41,510 nt of DNA, taken from Enterobacteria phage IME_EC2. Shown piece after piece: positions 7,126 to 40,396 of this stretch. Position 1 is the first letter of the stretch. Each line of letters opens with the position of its first letter. Below the pieces are notes generated by a model. That model was not told the DNA's origin. It ran no database searches and saw nothing but the letters and a program-made list of their open reading frames with translations. The position numbers were made by a program, and so were the translations under genes. The stretch is from sequence record NC_047742.1; one strand, 5' to 3'.

Positions 7126-7151
7126 AGCCCCCGCGCCGGGGCTTTTTTTTT
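7126..7151 (+). terminator. terminator-like hairpin (AGCCCC-CGCGCC-GGGGCT + T9), plus-strand polarity
   Basis: Strong hairpin plus T9 on the plus strand, abutting the stop of the minus-strand primase gene; minus-strand side has only an A-run upstream. Confidence 0.5.
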
Positions 7152-7968
7152 ACCCGAACGCCCCCGCAAGATGCCCGCCGACGCATGGCCTCCCCGTCCT
7201 CTCGTAGCCGTACAGGAAAACCTCGTCCGGGTCAGTGTAGACGAACCGGATCTCCCGATCGCCATCGTAGATCGCCGACGCCTGGATCGCGTTCATAGGC
7301 CGGAACGTCAGCCAGACCTCCGCCTCCCCTCGCGCCGCCACGTTCACGGCATGGACCGGATCCGCCACCAGATACACCGGAGCGTCCGGCGCTGGGTGGA
7401 TCAGCCCTACCGCGCCCCACGTCGGGCCACCAGCGGCAAACACCACAGACCTGTCGGAGCCGATCTTCGCCACGTTGCACCACGGCCCCAGCGATCCCCC
7501 CAGTGGACGAGCGCATGGAACATACAGGAAGCCGTCGCGCATTGCGCCTTTGCTCATGACCTTTTCCACGTCCTCCGGGGTCAGCTCCCAGTCCTGCGCG
7601 GGCTTGTCCTGCTGGCGGGCATACTTGCGGGCCTCTTTGACGATCGTTTCCCGCTTCTCCGGGGTGAGTCCGCCTATCCAGTCGCCCAGGTCGTTGATCG
7701 CTTCGTTGAATGGCTGCGATCTGCTGGTCATAAACCAAAACATGCCATCACGAGCGCCACCGCACGAGCCGGAACAGTACCCGAAGCCCTCGGCCTTCTT
7801 CGTCTGCTGCTTATGGCCCCAGCGAAAGCGATCCGTCCCGCCGCATATCGGGCAAGGCTGGTGATTGCCGTTAAACGCCTTGCGGTCCCAGCCGCACAGA
7901 TCGAGGAGCGCCTGTTCCCACTTGCCGGGCATCGCGGCGAGAACGTCCTCTTTTTTATAAATTGCCAT
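7150..7968 (-). CDS. putative DNA primase (P4-type Zn-ribbon plus TOPRIM-like region)
   Basis: HQPCPICGGTDRFRW zinc-binding motif typical of phage/plasmid primases; AGGAGG SD. Confidence 0.55.
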   Translation of the reverse strand: MAIYKKEDVLAAMPGKWEQALLDLCGWDRKAFNGNHQPCPICGGTDRFRWGHKQQTKKAEGFGYCSGSCGGARDGMFWFMTSRSQPFNEAINDLGDWIGGLTPEKRETIVKEARKYARQQDKPAQDWELTPEDVEKVMSKGAMRDGFLYVPCARPLGGSLGPWCNVAKIGSDRSVVFAAGGPTWGAVGLIHPAPDAPVYLVADPVHAVNVAARGEAEVWLTFRPMNAIQASAIYDGDREIRFVYTDPDEVFLYGYERTGRPCVGGHLAGAFG

Positions 7969-8030: not shown

Positions 8031-10073
8031 ATGGAAATGGTCGAGACATTAGAAAGGCAGATCGCGGCCCTCGATCGCGACGCCATTCTCCGCGCCCTCG
8101 GTGATATGCCCGTAACGCCATACGATCACCAGTTCGTCGCATATGAGGCTTGCGCGAAGGCTATCCGTAAATATCCGGGGCCTGTCATTGTGGACGCCGC
8201 CGTGAGCGCCGGGAAAACCATCATGATCTCCATGCTGGCCCGCCGGATCAGGGATATGGGATTCCCCGCCATGATCCTGTCCCGCCAGGGTGAGATCATC
8301 GATCAGGACTTCGAGGAGTTGCGGAACTTCGGCGTAAACTCCTCGATCTACTGCGCCAGCTTAGGCCGCAAGTCTGCACACTTCCCGATCGTCGTCGGCT
8401 CCGAGGGTACAGTGATCGGAGGGATCCGCCCAGGCCAGCCCCTCGCCCATTACGCGCCGTTGTTCCTGCTGATCGATGAATGCCATCACGTCAACATTGA
8501 GGACCTGATCCGCTCGGAGGAGCGCGTGGTCCCGGAGTACCTGCGGGACGATAACGGGACCGTTATCCTCGACGGCTTCGGGGATCCGACCATTATCGGC
8601 GAGCATAAGGGCGAGACATACGAGGAGATGATCGAGGCGGGTCGCTCCAGTTATACGATCATCATCCGAACGTTACAGGCCCGCGCCCGGTCAGTGTACG
8701 GGAAGGAACTCCGCATTATCGGCTACACTGGGACGCCTTACAGGGGCGTGGAGTCCATCATCCAGCCAGACCTCGAACAGCCCGGATTCTGGCGTGAAAA
8801 GGTCTGCGAGATCTCGACGGAATACCTCGTCAGCGTTGGCGCTGTCGTTCCGACTCACTTCGGGATCTCCAATCTCCACTACAACCTCGACCAGTGGCGA
8901 TCGACGGGTGAGGACGGCATTAAGGAGTTCACGGACTCCGACATGGACGCCATGCAAAAGGCGATCCTGAAAGAGAAAAAGCTCACTCATGAGATCATGG
9001 CGGAGGTCTACGCCATCGCCCAGCACAGGAACGGCGTGTTAGTGACGTGTGCGGGCGTGAGACACTGCAAACAGGCGGCGGAGGCCCTTCCCCCTGGTAC
9101 GCCTTACGCCATCATTACGGACGACACGACGGGCAAGAAGCGCATGGACATTTTGCGCCGCGCCAATACCGGGGAGATCAAGTTCATTTTCCAGGTTAAC
9201 GCCCTAACGACTGGCGTTAACGTCCCGTTCTGGGACACGTCCGTGATCCTGCGGAAGATCGGCTCCCTCACGCTCCTAACCCAGCTTTTAGGCCGTGGGA
9301 TGCGAATCCTTAAGCCGTTCCACATCGCCGCCGGGGTGACGAAAGAGGATCACCTGGTTCTCGACTACGCCGGGACGCTGGACGAACTCGGATCCCTGTA
9401 CTTCTCCCCGCTGCTGGAGGCATATCAGCACAGCGCCGACGAGAGCAAAGGAGAATTAGAGTTAGACTGTCCGAAGTGTCGCAAGGCGGGCCATCCTACG
9501 CTCAACGGCAAACACGCCCGACGCTGCCGCTACGTGGACGAGAACGGCGATCGCTGCGAACACTTTTTCCAGTTCATCACCTGCGACGACTGGAAGGACG
9601 CCAGCGGGCGGAAAGTGGTCCAAAAGGGATGCGGGGCGCAAAACGACATAGTAGCCAGGATCTGCCGCTGCTGCGGGAACTCGCTCGTAGATCCGAACAA
9701 GAACTTAAGCCGGACCACGTACAGCCGCGACGACTACGCGACCGTGAGAGGGTTCAGAATTGAATTAGCGCGAGGGACTGGGGGGATCGCCTTCCGGTAC
9801 GAACTGGAGAAGGACGGGGACCAGTTTGTGGCCTGGCAAGTATTTTGGCCCGGTAGCGACTCGCCAGCGGCGAAAAAGGAATGGGTCCATAATGGCATCC
9901 TTAAGCACGTCCTGGACGGCAAAATGAGGGCCACGATCAAGAAATGCCGGACGCCCCAGCAGGTATTAGAGTTCGCCCCGTACTTCATGGCCCCGCTTAA
10001 GGTCAGCCACCGGAAGATCGGCAAGGGTAAAGACGTTATCACTAACAAAATTTTCATGAATGAGGAGTTTTAA
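8031..10073 (+). CDS. SF2 DNA helicase (DExH box) with C-terminal Cys-rich zinc-finger region
   Basis: Motif I AAVSAGKT, motif II DECHH, motif VI QLLGRGMR; C-terminal CPKC...CRY...C...CRCC. Confidence 0.8.
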   Translation: MEMVETLERQIAALDRDAILRALGDMPVTPYDHQFVAYEACAKAIRKYPGPVIVDAAVSAGKTIMISMLARRIRDMGFPAMILSRQGEIIDQDFEELRNFGVNSSIYCASLGRKSAHFPIVVGSEGTVIGGIRPGQPLAHYAPLFLLIDECHHVNIEDLIRSEERVVPEYLRDDNGTVILDGFGDPTIIGEHKGETYEEMIEAGRSSYTIIIRTLQARARSVYGKELRIIGYTGTPYRGVESIIQPDLEQPGFWREKVCEISTEYLVSVGAVVPTHFGISNLHYNLDQWRSTGEDGIKEFTDSDMDAMQKAILKEKKLTHEIMAEVYAIAQHRNGVLVTCAGVRHCKQAAEALPPGTPYAIITDDTTGKKRMDILRRANTGEIKFIFQVNALTTGVNVPFWDTSVILRKIGSLTLLTQLLGRGMRILKPFHIAAGVTKEDHLVLDYAGTLDELGSLYFSPLLEAYQHSADESKGELELDCPKCRKAGHPTLNGKHARRCRYVDENGDRCEHFFQFITCDDWKDASGRKVVQKGCGAQNDIVARICRCCGNSLVDPNKNLSRTTYSRDDYATVRGFRIELARGTGGIAFRYELEKDGDQFVAWQVFWPGSDSPAAKKEWVHNGILKHVLDGKMRATIKKCRTPQQVLEFAPYFMAPLKVSHRKIGKGKDVITNKIFMNEEF

Positions 10074-12351: not shown

Positions 12352-12903
12352 ATGGCATCACGCGGCGTTAACAAGGTGATTCTGGTCGGCAATCTGGGCC
12401 AGGATCCCGAAGTGCGTTATATGCCGTCGGGTGGAGCGGTGGCGAACATTACGATCGCCACCTCTGAATCCTGGCGCGACAAGCAGACGGGCGAACAGAA
12501 AGAACAGACGGAATGGCATCGCGTCGTATTGTTCGGCAAGCTGGCGGAGGTCGCCGGGGAGTATCTGCGCAAGGGTTCACAGGTTTACATTGAGGGCCAG
12601 CTTAGGACGCGCAAATGGACGGACCAAAGCGGCGCGGAGAAGTACACGACGGAGGTCGTCGTGAACGTCGGCGGCACTATGCAAATGCTCGGCGGGAAGA
12701 AAGAGGGAGGCCAGTCTGGGGGGAATGGACCTACCCACTCCGGCGGCGGTGGCAATTCTCGCAATTCTCCGGGCCGTGGCGCGTCTAATTCGCAAAATCC
12801 GGGCAAGGGTAGCGGGTCGGGTCCTGCGTCGTCTGGAGGCGCTTCTGGGGCCTCTAATGGCGGGGAGCCTCCGATGGACTTTGACGACGATATACCGTTT
12901 TAA
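12352..12903 (+). CDS. ssb: single-stranded DNA-binding protein
   Basis: OB-fold SSB N-terminus ([36 protein letters not shown]), Gly-rich linker, acidic tail DDDIPF. Confidence 0.9.
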
Positions 12904-37170: not shown

Positions 37171-37389
37171 TCAGATGTTCGCGGCGATGAATGCCAGGAC
37201 TTCGCGGAGGTGCTTCTCGTCGCGGATAGTGGCTGGCAATTCCTCTTTCACGCTGCTGTCGAGGTAGATATTGCCATTCCATGTATAAGAGCCGTTAGGG
37301 TTGACCAGATAGGAGAACATCCACTCACAATCATTGTCAGCTTCCCACACGCACAGCAGGATCTTTCCGTCGTCGTTGATATCTTCCAT
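37171..37389 (-). CDS. hypothetical protein (72 aa)
   Basis: ORF track; preferred over overlapping low-complexity ORF 37248..37511. Confidence 0.5.
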   Translation of the reverse strand: MEDINDDGKILLCVWEADNDCEWMFSYLVNPNGSYTWNGNIYLDSSVKEELPATIRDEKHLREVLAFIAANI

Positions 37390-37518
37390 CGTAACGTCCA
37401 GGCCGCGCTTAACTGCGTATTTTTGGTGGTTGCGTTGACTGCTGTCATGGTCTTGCCCTCTGAGTTGGTGGGCGTCTCGTCGCCCGGTGAAAACATATTA
37501 TCAATTATCACCGGGGAC

Positions 37519-37717: not shown

Positions 37718-37947
37718 TTCCCCAGCCTCACCTTGCGGACGATCGTAGCTGCGGTGTCGTAGGCGTCGCGCTGCCGGGGTGAGACGCTGCTCTCCCGGAG
37801 TTCGACCAGACCACGCTCCAGGACTTCCAGCGCGGCCCAGCGCCCGGACAAGTCCATGATCACCTCCTCGGCGTCGCGGTCGATCTTGCCTGGCGGGTGT
37901 CCCTCCGCCATCAGCTTGATCTCCTCGGTGGTCATTGGCTTACGCAT
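37714..37947 (-). CDS. hypothetical protein (77 aa)
   Basis: ORF track; ATGA overlap. Confidence 0.5.
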   Translation of the reverse strand: MRKPMTTEEIKLMAEGHPPGKIDRDAEEVIMDLSGRWAALEVLERGLVELRESSVSPRQRDAYDTAATIVRKVRLGK

Positions 37948-38236
37948 CAGCGCCCCCTTTCGGTCCCAGCTCCTGGTCGATAAAGTCCTGCGCCATGCGG
38001 TCGGCGTCCTCTGCGTTCGCGTTCTGGATGGCCTCCAGTTGCTTCTTGCGGTGGTCGTGGAGGAAGCTCTCGACGGCCTGGTGTGCGAGCGCCGTCGCCT
38101 GGTTGTGGGTGTAGCCCTTGCGCTTAAACTGGGCGTAAGCGTTATCGAGCAACGTCTGGCGCTGGTGTGGGCCTACATACATACGCGAGATATCCGCGAC
38201 GCCTGATTTCTGCCCTGCATTGTCTTTCATCATCAT
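37940..38236 (-). CDS. hypothetical protein (98 aa)
   Basis: ORF track. Confidence 0.5.
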   Translation of the reverse strand: MMMKDNAGQKSGVADISRMYVGPHQRQTLLDNAYAQFKRKGYTHNQATALAHQAVESFLHDHRKKQLEAIQNANAEDADRMAQDFIDQELGPKGGADA

Positions 38237-38266
38237 CTCCTCGTTTCCTCGTCGTCGTGACGGGCC

Positions 38267-38455
38267 TCACATCAGGCCCAGCATGTTAAACACGATCGCC
38301 GCCAGTCCGACCACGATCGCGCCGATGGTTGTCGCCACCATCAGGAAGTAATTCCACAATCCGAACCGTTCGATCCAGTGGTTCGATCGTGCTGGTTCAA
38401 CCTGTCCGACTGCTGTCCGTCGGGGGAATAAAATCACGTTGTTATCGTCGCTCAT
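38267..38455 (-). CDS. small membrane protein (62 aa)
   Basis: C-terminal TM segment LMVATTIGAIVVGLAAIVF. Confidence 0.45.
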   Translation of the reverse strand: MSDDNNVILFPRRTAVGQVEPARSNHWIERFGLWNYFLMVATTIGAIVVGLAAIVFNMLGLM

Positions 38456-38640
38456 TTCGCATCACTTATCAATGATTATTTAAGCGGGGATTTTTCGGGG
38501 GTGGCCCCCGATTTTTACCCCCTGATTTCCGCATTAACGATTTGCCATAAACCTGTTAACACTTCTCTTGTAACTTCATGAATCTGTTATGTTAATTTTC
38601 AGTTCATAGTTAACGTTGTTTAGACTTTCCGGCATATGTT

Positions 38641-38692
38641 GTTAACGTTACGCGTTTATCCCTCTCTCTATAAGAGAGGGGATAACGTTAAC
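38641..38692. repeat. 52-bp imperfect palindrome (GTTAACGTTA ... TAACGTTAAC outer arms) in AT-rich iteron-like region
   Basis: Outer 10-bp arms are exact reverse complements; inner arms TATCCCTCTCTC / GAGAGGGGATA nearly so; further GTTAAC(GTT) copies nearby. Confidence 0.6.
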
Positions 38693-38848
38693 GGAACACA
38701 ACGCCCCGTTAAAAGTCACTCAGATCGTCGGATCCTTCGGTCGGTTTCCAGTCGGTCGGGAGTGGCTTCTGATCCCGGATTCCACCCAGGAGCGGAGCCG
38801 CTTCGGTTGAGGCGGTCAGCGTTTCGTCCCCTGCCATTTTGATGATCA

Positions 38849-40396
38849 TCATTTTTTGGTCGCATGTTCGAAGGCGTGGAAAAAGTCCGTCCGCTTAATC
38901 GGCGGCTCTGCGAAGTTGCGGAAGTGATCGGATAACATGCCTTTGGTCAGCTTCGGCAAGCGGTAGCCCTTGTCCTTGCGCTGCTGCGAGTATTCCACGA
39001 CGTAGGCCAGCAGTCGGATCGCCTGTTCCTCCTTCTTGCTGCGCTTGCGCGTGTCCTCCGGCTTCTCGCCCTCGTCCTTCTCGGCTGGCACTGCCTCCAG
39101 CGCGTTAATGACGACCAGCGTCCCCAGGTTGTCGCCGATCTCCCACGCCGCCGGGTTGGCCTTCGCCTCCGGGCGTACAGGCTGCATCCTCGCCAGCGCC
39201 TCGCGCTTCATCTTCACCAGGTCAGGCGGTAACTTCGCGGACTTCGTGCGCATGGCTCGCGCCGGGAGAAGCGCACAGCCTTTGGCCTTCGTGTGCTCAA
39301 TCACAAAAAGCTCTTTGTCCTTGCACTTCTTCACCATGATCTCGAATCCGGCGTTTGCCCTGAGCGTTGACGCGCCACGAGCGCCGCGCTCGGTGTCCTT
39401 CCCGGTGTGGTGGATGATCATCACGGCACAGTTAAGCCATTCAGCCAGTAACGCCGCGTTACGCATCAGGATCGCCGCCACGTTGTTGTCGTTCTCGTTG
39501 AAGTCGGTCCCGCCCTCCCAGCGGTCCGGCTCGTCGCCCTTGCCTGGGATCATGCGCTCGCCCACTTTCTGGCCCGCGCTGTTGGCGCTGTAGGTATCGA
39601 TCACGATCAGGGAAAGCGGGTTCAGGCCGAAGAATGGGGACGCCTTGATGGTTGCCGCGAACGTCTGGAGTTCGCTCTCGCGGTGTAGTGGGACCTGCTG
39701 GGACAATACCCAAAAGTTGGGTAACGGCTCGTTCTTGTTCTGCGTGTACTTCCATCCCGCGTAACGTTCACGGACGCCGCTCGCATCCTCCGGCGCGAAG
39801 TACATCACGGATCCCTGTCGGACTGGCAAGCCGCCGAAGTCGATCCCGGTGGCGACACAAATCGCCATTTGTAACGCTGCGAACGTTTTCTTTGCGCCGG
39901 ACTCGCCGACCAGGAAGCCCACGGAGCGCTCCGGGATCAGCGACTGGATCACATAGTTAACGGGCTTGATCTCGTTCGACTTGTTCAGGCTGGCGATCAG
40001 CGGGTCGTCCATTGCCTCGACCGCCAGCGCCTCGTCGATCTTCTTGCGCTGCTTCTCGCGCTGCTTCGCGAGGAGTTCCTGGCGACGTGCTTCGTCCTTC
40101 TCCTCGTCGGTGAGGTCTGACGTCTTGACGATCGTCGGCTTGTCGTTGCGGACGGTTGCCGTCCACTCTGCGGCCTCGTGCTCGTCGAAGTCGAAGAACG
40201 CCCCGGCATCCTGGGCGGATTCTGCTTCTCTCGCCGCGTACAGGCTGGCCTGTTCCTCGTAGAACTCCATAGGAGCCTCTGGCACGTCGTCAGCAGGTGG
40301 AGGCGTTACCGGGCCGGAGAACTCGCCCCGGACCATCTCGATCAGCTCCTCCTCGCTGCGCTCTGGTGTCGGCATTACTTCATCATAATCAGTCAT
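38849..40396 (-). CDS. RepA-like RecA-fold AAA ATPase (putative replicative helicase)
   Basis: Walker A GESGAKKT, Walker B-like LIVIDTYS, IIHHTGKD; acidic disordered N-terminal region. Confidence 0.7.
   Translation of the reverse strand: MTDYDEVMPTPERSEEELIEMVRGEFSGPVTPPPADDVPEAPMEFYEEQASLYAAREAESAQDAGAFFDFDEHEAAEWTATVRNDKPTIVKTSDLTDEEKDEARRQELLAKQREKQRKKIDEALAVEAMDDPLIASLNKSNEIKPVNYVIQSLIPERSVGFLVGESGAKKTFAALQMAICVATGIDFGGLPVRQGSVMYFAPEDASGVRERYAGWKYTQNKNEPLPNFWVLSQQVPLHRESELQTFAATIKASPFFGLNPLSLIVIDTYSANSAGQKVGERMIPGKGDEPDRWEGGTDFNENDNNVAAILMRNAALLAEWLNCAVMIIHHTGKDTERGARGASTLRANAGFEIMVKKCKDKELFVIEHTKAKGCALLPARAMRTKSAKLPPDLVKMKREALARMQPVRPEAKANPAAWEIGDNLGTLVVINALEAVPAEKDEGEKPEDTRKRSKKEEQAIRLLAYVVEYSQQRKDKGYRLPKLTKGMLSDHFRNFAEPPIKRTDFFHAFEHATKK

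Follow-up and report, generated by a model that had tools for sequence, protein, structure and literature searches.

The C-terminal winged-helix origin-binding domain of the P4 α protein (gp-alpha) reads octamer iterons, TGTTCACC, in both orientations. In the core origin of simian virus 40 (SV40), inverted pentanucleotide pairs form a central palindrome that is read by the origin-binding domain of large T antigen, an AT tract lies on the flank, and the protein assembles as a head-to-head double hexamer. As a rule, helicases of the RepA/DnaB type require a separate initiator or loader; in IncQ, a separate initiator, RepC, binds 20-bp tandem direct repeats. In the pathogenicity islands of Staphylococcus aureus (SaPIs) and the phage-inducible chromosomal islands (PICIs), the C-terminal winged helix of Rep binds 6-12 penta- or hexanucleotide iterons located immediately 3' of rep, with at least two iterons per side in opposite directions, and the site is a proven ori (PMC9371898, PMC6092414). 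The present analysis concerns the 41,510-nucleotide sequence of Enterobacteria phage IME_EC2 (NC_047742.1; the whole of this stretch is called the window below), a P22-like podovirus of 59% GC, and in it the intergenic gap that directly follows the gene for a helicase of the Pfam family AAA_25. We propose, with a probability of about 70%, that this gap is the phage origin of replication and the cognate site of the helicase encoded immediately upstream, a reading drawn from sequence comparison and structure prediction.

Results

An earlier reading of the same DNA, made from its letters and a list of open reading frames (ORFs) and referred to here as the sequence-only reading, had described a 390-bp non-coding region, the longest in the window, next to the helicase gene. 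That extent was overstated by 140 bp of coding sequence: positions 38709-38852 of the minus strand encode the last 47 residues of the helicase and are conserved in every relative. The true gap, of 253 bp, is the largest genuine intergenic gap in the annotation of Escherichia phage sortsyn (Murrayvirus EC2), which is 99.4% identical to the window over the 2.5 kb tested. The window has a run of six A residues where sortsyn has seven, and the helicase ORF is thereby split into pieces of 515 and 47 aa; the relatives read straight through, those other than sortsyn having no homopolymer at this position. The loss of one base is probably a homopolymer sequencing error, since IME_EC2 was sequenced on the Ion Torrent platform (PMC3896407). 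A -1 slip on AAA AAA TGA would yield the same protein, and nothing points to a programmed slip.

About 11 CGTTAAC-type 7-mers map to the gap, some in inverted sets that flank a 52-bp dyad and others scattered over an AT-rich stretch (Table 1). Four GTTAAC sites (38555, 38609, 38641, and 38687) are observed, compared with the 0.08 that the density outside the gap predicts for 253 bp (Poisson P = 1.6e-6), and the 200-bp stretch 38532-38731 contains 12 positions with at most one mismatch to CGTTAAC, the next-best 200-bp stretch of the window containing six. No second iteron cluster was found in the window, the gap being the only strong one. The sequence-only reading had counted at least three copies of GTTAACGTT, and exactly three occur in the 41.5-kb window, all inside the region, at 38609 (+), 38641 (+), and 38684 (-). 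Its further GTTAAC sites, its 52-bp imperfect palindrome, and its GC hairpin (CGGGGGTGGCCCCCG, with ATTTTT on both sides) were likewise recovered, and the AT-richness that it noted is such that the lowest-GC stretches of 100, 150, and 250 bp in the whole window all fall in this region.

The core of the dyad consists of a pyrimidine run, TATAA, and a purine run. Its outer arms are complementary at 10 of 10 positions and its inner arms (38653-38667 and 38673-38687) at 80%, and the free energy of the hairpin, calculated with DNA parameters, is −11.5 kcal/mol versus −2.9 ± 1.7 kcal/mol for shuffles. GC content reaches its minimum at 38523-38622 (31%, against about 59% overall), and the gap also holds the least stable 100-bp duplex of the genome; the dispersed iterons sit inside this AT-rich, least stable stretch, a putative unwinding region. 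The sequence ATTCATGAAGTTA of the window, a candidate site for integration host factor (IHF), resembles the core of the IHF consensus WATCARNNNNTTR, which the corresponding sequences of Lumpael and the contig L011 match exactly.

Both strands of the gap fold better than shuffles (z = −4.6 and −3.8), and the hairpin of the block of G/C-runs is terminator-like on the plus strand only. These features could point to a small structured RNA, such as a plus-strand transcript ending at the hairpin and T-run (38495-38516) or an antisense RNA, but the folding signal is equal on both strands and is explained by the DNA dyads, the best score in an Rfam scan is 18.3 bits against a gathering threshold of 94, and no promoter for a small RNA was found in a scan of the window. 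Moreover, the primary sequence is unconserved between lineages apart from the layout, and in ST231, KMB41, and L017 unrelated sequence stands in place of the hairpin block. We regard a small RNA, which the sequence-only reading had kept as a possibility, as very improbable; nothing was found in its support.

The gap was compared among 17 Murrayvirus and Sortsnevirus loci, comprising four GenBank Murrayviruses, five IMG/VR contigs that include the Sortsnevirus phages Sortsne and IME279 (a sixth contig, L006, duplicates Lumpael and was left out), and eight Logan contigs with helicases 51-99% identical to the query. At the nucleotide level, the gap can be aligned between lineages over only about 75 bp beside the downstream gene. 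The layout is alike in all 17, although the repeat word varies. In the sense of the helicase gene, two to three copies of a word of 6-7 bp are followed by the dyad, with a pyrimidine run, TATA or TAAA, and a purine run as its core, and then by two to three copies in the opposite orientation; about five more copies come at conserved positions in the AT-rich stretch, together with an invariant TCA-N5-TTA, and are followed by a block of G/C-runs and A/T-tracts and by an invariant box, ATCATTGA, before the next gene. The G/C-run block has analogues of other sequence in most relatives, for example three copies of GCGGCATTTTT in L015. The stems of the dyad differ by lineage (CCCTCTCTC, CCCCCCC, CTCCCTG, CTCTCTC, ATACCCCC, and others) but complementarity is kept throughout, and the hairpin energies calculated for DNA lie between −10.8 and −14.9 kcal/mol in 14 of the 14 lineages tested, compared with about −3 kcal/mol for shuffles. 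The word is CGTTAAC in the window, L012, L015, and L016; GGTAACA in Lumpael, L019, and the IME279 group; ATAACAT in ST231 and L013; GGTTACA in KMB41, L007, and L011; and CGTTACA in L017.

Parts of this layout might be accounted for if the gap were a transcription boundary or regulatory hub without origin function, in which the helicase transcript ends or is attenuated at the dyad, the repeats serve as operators (possibly for autoregulation by the helicase), and the box is the promoter of the downstream operon. The gap lies between two genes on the same strand, the TTGA in the box is invariant in 15 lineages, and host promoters would be needed since no phage RNA polymerase is recognized among the screened ORFs; in IME279, a bidirectional terminator is scored at the dyad and a promoter (TTGAAA-17-TACTAT) at the conserved box, which is a Sortsnevirus feature. 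In the window, however, no sigma-70-like promoter passes the scan, and the sole terminator-like hairpin is on the plus strand, opposite to all neighboring genes, while the dyad has no T-run. The dyads of most distant relatives likewise lack a trailing T-run; a G+C-rich hairpin with a T-run after it on the transcribed strand, as in intrinsic terminators, occurs only in the Sortsnevirus relatives. In addition, an array of about 11 repeats that point both ways and extend through 160 bp of the least stable DNA is not operator-like, the repeats co-vary with a replicative helicase rather than with a regulator, and the module of dyad and inverted repeats follows helicase genes in unrelated gene contexts (both described below). 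A promoter at the gene-proximal end can exist alongside an origin and does not take its place. We consider it unlikely that regulation is the whole function of the gap; the regulatory hub that had been suggested from the sequence may hold at the gene-proximal end, with its TTGA-containing box, but is not the preferred reading of the remainder.

Across Murrayvirus and Sortsnevirus, the box, ATCATTGAnnnGTGATG, stays invariant in an otherwise diverging gap. It could act as a −35 (TTGAnA) promoter element, as a translational operator hairpin, or as a site for a conserved protein.

The helicase consists of an acidic, variable N terminus (aa 1-135), a RecA-fold AAA_25 core (aa ∼136-432), a C-terminal domain, and a conserved acidic tail. 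AAA_25 is the only Pfam family that the 562-aa protein matches (E = 9.5e-23), and there is no primase domain by Pfam. When an AlphaFold2 model with a mean predicted local distance difference test score (pLDDT) of 73 was compared with solved structures by Foldseek, the hexameric helicase RepA of RSF1010 was the best match (1g8y, E = 3.6e-10), followed by DnaB and by RecA/Rad51-type proteins; the top entries were 1g8y, 1nlf, and 1olo, and the sequence match to 1g8y is weak (E = 0.041). The designation of the product as RepA-like, and the placement of the region beside a replication ATPase gene, directly 3' of which it indeed lies, agree with these results. The C-terminal domain, of the order helix-helix-helix-strand-strand, structurally matches winged-helix DNA-binding proteins (ORC/Cdc6, MCM6, MarR, and RTP), and the helicase is predicted to carry a winged helix at this position. 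Among 1.84 billion representative proteins, a profile of the domain detected no relatives beyond the phage group, and its alignment with distant AAA_25 proteins by hhalign yielded nothing.

The helicase belongs to PHROG phrog_2850, labeled "unknown function," and its homologue in KMB41 (L005, OR539216.1, 2806-4461) is labeled "cobalt-zinc-cadmium resistance protein," a probable misannotation. The acidic tail (38709-38760, ending in PLPTDWKPTEGSDDLSDF) has D-F as its last residues and TDW within it. Similar acidic C-terminal tails occur in T7 gp4, T7 gp2.5, and bacterial SSB, where they recruit polymerase or partner proteins, and since no phage polymerase gene is recognized, it may by analogy recruit host replication proteins.

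The third helix (H3) is the usual recognition helix of the winged-helix fold, and H3 changes with the repeat word: TDFFHAFEHAT is paired with CGTTAAC, HQFARAFKYAT with GGTAACA, MKMTRAFDHAT with ATAACAT, and TAFRRAFLHAT with GGTTACA. Over 15 lineages, the k-mer similarity of the repeats correlates with identity in the H3 region (Mantel r = 0.53, p = 2e-4), and the correlation is retained when it is made partial on the ATPase core (r = 0.51, p = 2e-4), whereas the correlations with the ATPase core itself and with the N terminus are weak (r = 0.19 and 0.21, respectively). In ST231, the N terminus and ATPase core are 96-99% identical to those of the window, but H3 and the word both differ; the C-terminal domain of a close ST231-like protein, P0003, is 39% identical to that of the window, and the local block of divergent DNA corresponds exactly to the gap plus the coding sequence of this domain (38450-39100). 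In L015 and L016, the N terminus is only 21-24% and the ATPase core 72-74% identical to the window, yet the same H3 and the same CGTTAAC word are found. The statement that only the gap and the C-terminal domain differ between the window and ST231 is true locally but was rejected for the genome as a whole.

GTTAAC is about 3-fold over-represented outside the gap (13 sites versus about 4.5 expected, for example at 283, 556, 9195, 9216, 12367, 13358, and 13422), the site at 12367 falling in the conserved N terminus of SSB (MASRGVNKV). These sites were considered as additional helicase sites and rejected: the pair at 9195/9216 is identical in ST231, and since an equal excess is seen in ST231 despite its different repeat word, the genome-wide excess is unrelated to the iterons.

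Repeats and an IHF-like site near a genome end would also be expected of a packaging recognition (pac) site, bound by the small terminase and directing a cut at the nearby fixed end. Terminus mapping of IME_EC2 showed one fixed end and a terminal redundancy of about 300 bp (PMC3896407). The dominant reverse end-read from that study maps to 38180-38209 on the minus strand and places the fixed end at 38209, at a distance of about 250 bp from the gap and of 320-480 bp from the repeats. Forward end-reads begin at about 37910, which sets the terminal redundancy at 37910-38209; packaging proceeds toward lower coordinates, so that the proposed origin and the helicase gene would lie in the last-packaged part of the genome. 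In headful pac sites of the P1/P22/SPP1 type, the phage DNA is cut within the recognition repeats or right next to them, and the specificity of the small terminase corresponds to the site. The cut of IME_EC2, however, is outside the repeat array and inside an ORF (37940-38236). Furthermore, the products of the two genes just upstream of the large terminase gene share 95-98% identity with those of the window in both sortsyn and ST231; they do not track the word, because they are this similar where the words differ (sortsyn and the window versus ST231). The repeats co-vary instead with the C terminus of the helicase, and AAA_25 genes of islands and bacterial genomes carry the same module. A pac site is thus an improbable explanation of the array. 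The high identity of 38200-38450 between lineages was rejected as evidence for a cis-acting packaging element since it is not distinctive, these mosaic genomes having many islands of 90-100% identity.

In the comparison of the window with Lumpael (L002), for instance, islands of 90-100% nucleotide identity against a background of about 70% occur at 37200-37400, 37800-37999, and 38200-38450, and two high-identity islands bracket the region of terminal redundancy. A 183-aa protein encoded two genes upstream of the large terminase gene (L002, MK125141.1, 25-675) belongs to a PHROG of unknown function; it is labeled "putative recombinase" in Lumpael and "DNA gyrase subunit A" in KMB41, both probable misannotations.

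The module recurs beyond these phages. The genes for AAA_25 proteins at roughly 22-37% identity, in bacterial genomes and islands, are immediately followed by a C-run/TATA/G-run dyad set between inverted short repeats. For helicases that are only about 30% identical to that of the window, the dyad has the form C-run/TTATA/G-run. Two of these loci are int-AlpA islands: that of Pseudomonas fluorescens encodes a PriCT/Toprim/AAA_25 protein and has about 13 CGTTAC words around GTTACACATACCCCCCTATAAGGGGGTATGTAAC, and a metagenomic one has GGACA repeats around GGACATCCCCCTTATAGGGGTGTCC. Another contig has GCGTGAC repeats around AAAAATCCCCCCCC-TGTAA-GGGGGGATTTT. Further dyads following distant AAA_25 genes, which occur in int-AlpA islands and in the genomes of many bacterial phyla, are CCCCCTTATAGGGG, CCCCCCTATAAGGGGG, and CCCCCTAAAGGGGG. 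A scan of bacterial genomes, with one genome per species, gave 68 loci with relatives, 62 of which have enough downstream sequence. A strict dyad, defined as C4+/AT-loop/G4+ within 450 nt after the stop codon, is present in 19 of these 62, corresponding to 20 hits in 28.3 kb versus 9 in 355 kb elsewhere, an enrichment of which part may reflect the difference between intergenic and coding DNA. Judged by eye, most of the strict-dyad loci have inverted, lineage-specific words on either side, and relaxed versions occur at further loci; these neighboring inverted repeats and the lack of T-runs speak against ordinary terminators at the bacterial dyads. Limited literature searches found no report that combines AAA_25 with iterons.

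The genes of IME_EC2 itself include, apart from the helicase, those for a DnaG-type primase, SSB, ERF recombinase, exonuclease, SNF2-type helicase, and Dam methylase, whereas no DNA polymerase, RNA polymerase, or separate initiator was recognized among the screened ORFs of the window. The protein encoded next to the gap on its downstream side has no Pfam or PHROG match and, judged by eye, is probably a small membrane protein. The coordinates of these features are given in Table 1.

Table 1. Features of the proposed origin region of IME_EC2, of associated genes, and of the distant modules
Feature	Position	Strand	Description
Intergenic region, proposed origin of replication	38456-38708	.	253 bp
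52-bp dyad	38641-38692	.	Inverted iterons GTTAACGTTA / TAACGTTAAC around core CCCTCTCTC-TATAA-GAGAGGGG at 38660-38681
Dispersed iterons	38532-38617	.	38608-38615, 38554-38561, 38532-38539, and degenerate copies
IHF-like sequence ATTCATGAAGTTA	38572-38584	-	Invariant TCA-N5-TTA core; TCA and TTA kept in 15/15 aligned lineages
G/C-runs alternating with A/T-tracts	38483-38527	.	Includes hairpin 38495-38511
Invariant box ATCATTGATAAGTGATG	38460-38476	-	Just upstream of next gene; ATCATTG kept in 15/15 lineages
Replicative helicase gene	38709-40396	-	562 aa after correction of one-base loss in A-run 38852-38857
Coding sequence of predicted C-terminal winged helix	38808-39043	-	aa ∼452-530
Putative recognition helix H3	38852-38893	-	TDFFHAFEHATKK, aa 502-515
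Next downstream gene	38267-38455	-	62-aa conserved protein with hydrophobic C-terminal stretch; outside origin
DnaG-type primase gene	7150-7968	-	Separate from helicase gene
Distant module, L022	3795-4181		
Distant module, L023	2169-2327		
Distant module, L024	4559-4766		
Distant modules, genome loci L025-L092			

Discussion

An origin with iterons beside a RepA-like ATPase gene, the first choice of the sequence-only reading, is favored by the layout that is kept while the word changes, by the co-variation of the word with the predicted winged helix, and by the recurrence of the module 3' of distant AAA_25 genes. In the mechanism that we propose, the winged helix would read the 7-bp CGTTAAC iterons, and the inverted sets that flank the pyrimidine-run/TATAA/purine-run dyad would position two helicase assemblies face to face across it, the dyad possibly being extruded as a cruciform. 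The other iterons, together with a bend at the IHF-like site, would wrap the adjacent 110-bp AT-rich stretch, the least stable DNA of the genome, which would then melt (38523-38640). The helicase would load itself without a separate loader, the DnaG-type primase would prime synthesis, and host polymerase would replicate the phage DNA, since no DNA polymerase gene is recognized among the screened ORFs. The gene-proximal end of the gap probably also carries a promoter for the downstream genes, and a promoter or terminator role may coexist with that of an origin.

It should be recognized that several observations weigh against this reading, in addition to the terminator- and promoter-like scores in IME279 and the closeness of the gap to the fixed genome end. 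The center of the dyad is G/C-clamped and not AT-rich as in the SaPI origins. By eye, there is no DnaA box within two mismatches in the gap of the window. Cumulative GC skew does not switch at the gap and has its minimum about 2 kb away; as skew follows gene orientation and is confounded by it, it was dropped as an uninformative indicator of an origin. A GTTAC core is common to most of the lineage words, so that specificity differs only modestly except in the CGTTAAC and ATAACAT classes. The C-terminal domain is encoded right beside the gap, and blocks of recombination could couple the two without a functional link; the comparison with L015 and L016 is the main, and the only, argument against simple linkage of domain and word. 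Finally, ST231 also differs from the window in other regions, which encode unknown small proteins, and another DNA-binding protein elsewhere in the genome may co-vary with the word.

A broader proposal, advanced more tentatively, is that the gap represents a widespread class of origins. In this class, AAA_25 (RepA/superfamily 4 (SF4)-like) RecA-fold helicases might serve as their own initiators and loaders, a swappable C-terminal domain reading lineage-specific iterons of 5-8 bp, and the near-universal C-run/TATA/G-run dyad between the inverted sets might be a structure-specific, cruciform-prone loading or melting point recognized by the conserved core. The members of such a class could be found in lytic coliphages, in int-AlpA islands, and in other mobile elements of Proteobacteria, Verrucomicrobiota, and Spirochaetia. 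In limited literature searches, neither such an origin class nor its signature was found to be described.

If the origin proposed for IME_EC2 is correct, the Murrayvirus and Sortsnevirus phages, which are candidates for phage therapy, gain an origin and an initiator; limited searches found no literature on their replication and no mapped replication system. A helicase family that has so far been filed under unknown function, and in one record as a metal-resistance protein, would then acquire a role. It would also follow that the design known from the superfamily 3 (SF3) helicases of SaPIs, PICIs, and P4, a self-loading helicase with downstream iterons, also exists in a version based on a RepA/DnaB-type RecA-fold helicase. 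Moreover, a C-run/TATA/G-run dyad that is set between inverted short repeats and lies directly 3' of an AAA_25 gene could then be used as a signature for finding origins in many uncharacterized mobile elements. The natural module swaps, between the window and ST231 and between the window and L015, are ready-made experiments on specificity.

Among the known systems, P1 pac and lambda cosB have short repeated words and an IHF site near the genome end. IME_EC2 is like them in having short repeats and an IHF-like core close to its genome end, but its cut is outside the array, the terminase-adjacent proteins do not co-vary with the word, and the repeats have no GATC. The likeness to the SV40 core origin is one of logic only; its protein, an SF3 AAA+ helicase of a eukaryotic virus, is unrelated. 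The RSF1010/IncQ system, which comprises the helicase RepA, the primase RepB', the initiator RepC, and oriV, provides the closest solved helicase fold (1g8y) and shares with IME_EC2 the possession of its own helicase and primase, the use of host polymerase (proposed for IME_EC2), and an origin that combines repeats, an AT-rich stretch, and palindromes. In contrast to its tandem direct repeats of about 17-22 bp, the repeats of IME_EC2 are dispersed 7-bp words in both orientations, and in place of a separate initiator, none of which was recognized among the screened genes, the predicted DNA-binding domain is fused to the helicase. P4 is similar in its multifunctional replication protein with a winged helix and in its short iterons in both orientations. 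However, the P4 α protein is a primase fused to an SF3 helicase, whereas the primase of IME_EC2 is the product of a separate gene; no second cis element like crr, which P4 requires, was found in the window, and the winged helix of IME_EC2 has no detectable sequence relatives outside the phage group.

With the SaPIs and PICIs, the locus shares a replicative helicase with a (here predicted) C-terminal winged helix and iterons of 5-7 bp immediately 3' of its ORF, of which the 17 loci show two to three per side of the dyad, oppositely oriented, and further dispersed copies; each element has its own iteron word, no separate loader would be needed, and the primase is separate or fused. The helicases are nevertheless of different type, that of IME_EC2 being a RecA-fold AAA_25 protein (RepA/SF4-like) and those of the islands SF3/AAA+ proteins of the D5 type. 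The proven origin of the Escherichia coli PICI EcCICFT073 was considered as a case within the same helicase family and was rejected: its Pri-Rep is D5-like, matching D5_N, DUF5906, and Pox_D5, and its origin has TGTCTACC iterons around an AT-rich stretch, with no central dyad of the C-run/TATA/G-run type. The PICMI satellites were also rejected as relatives, their primases being of a different family. IME_EC2 has at its center a G/C-clamped dyad, the core of which is TATA; the AT-rich stretch is found on one side of this dyad and holds further iterons, and the host element is a lytic podovirus rather than a satellite. Thus, the gap resembles the SaPI/PICI Rep-ori in its logic but departs from it in two defining points, the superfamily of the helicase and the type of center between the inverted iterons.

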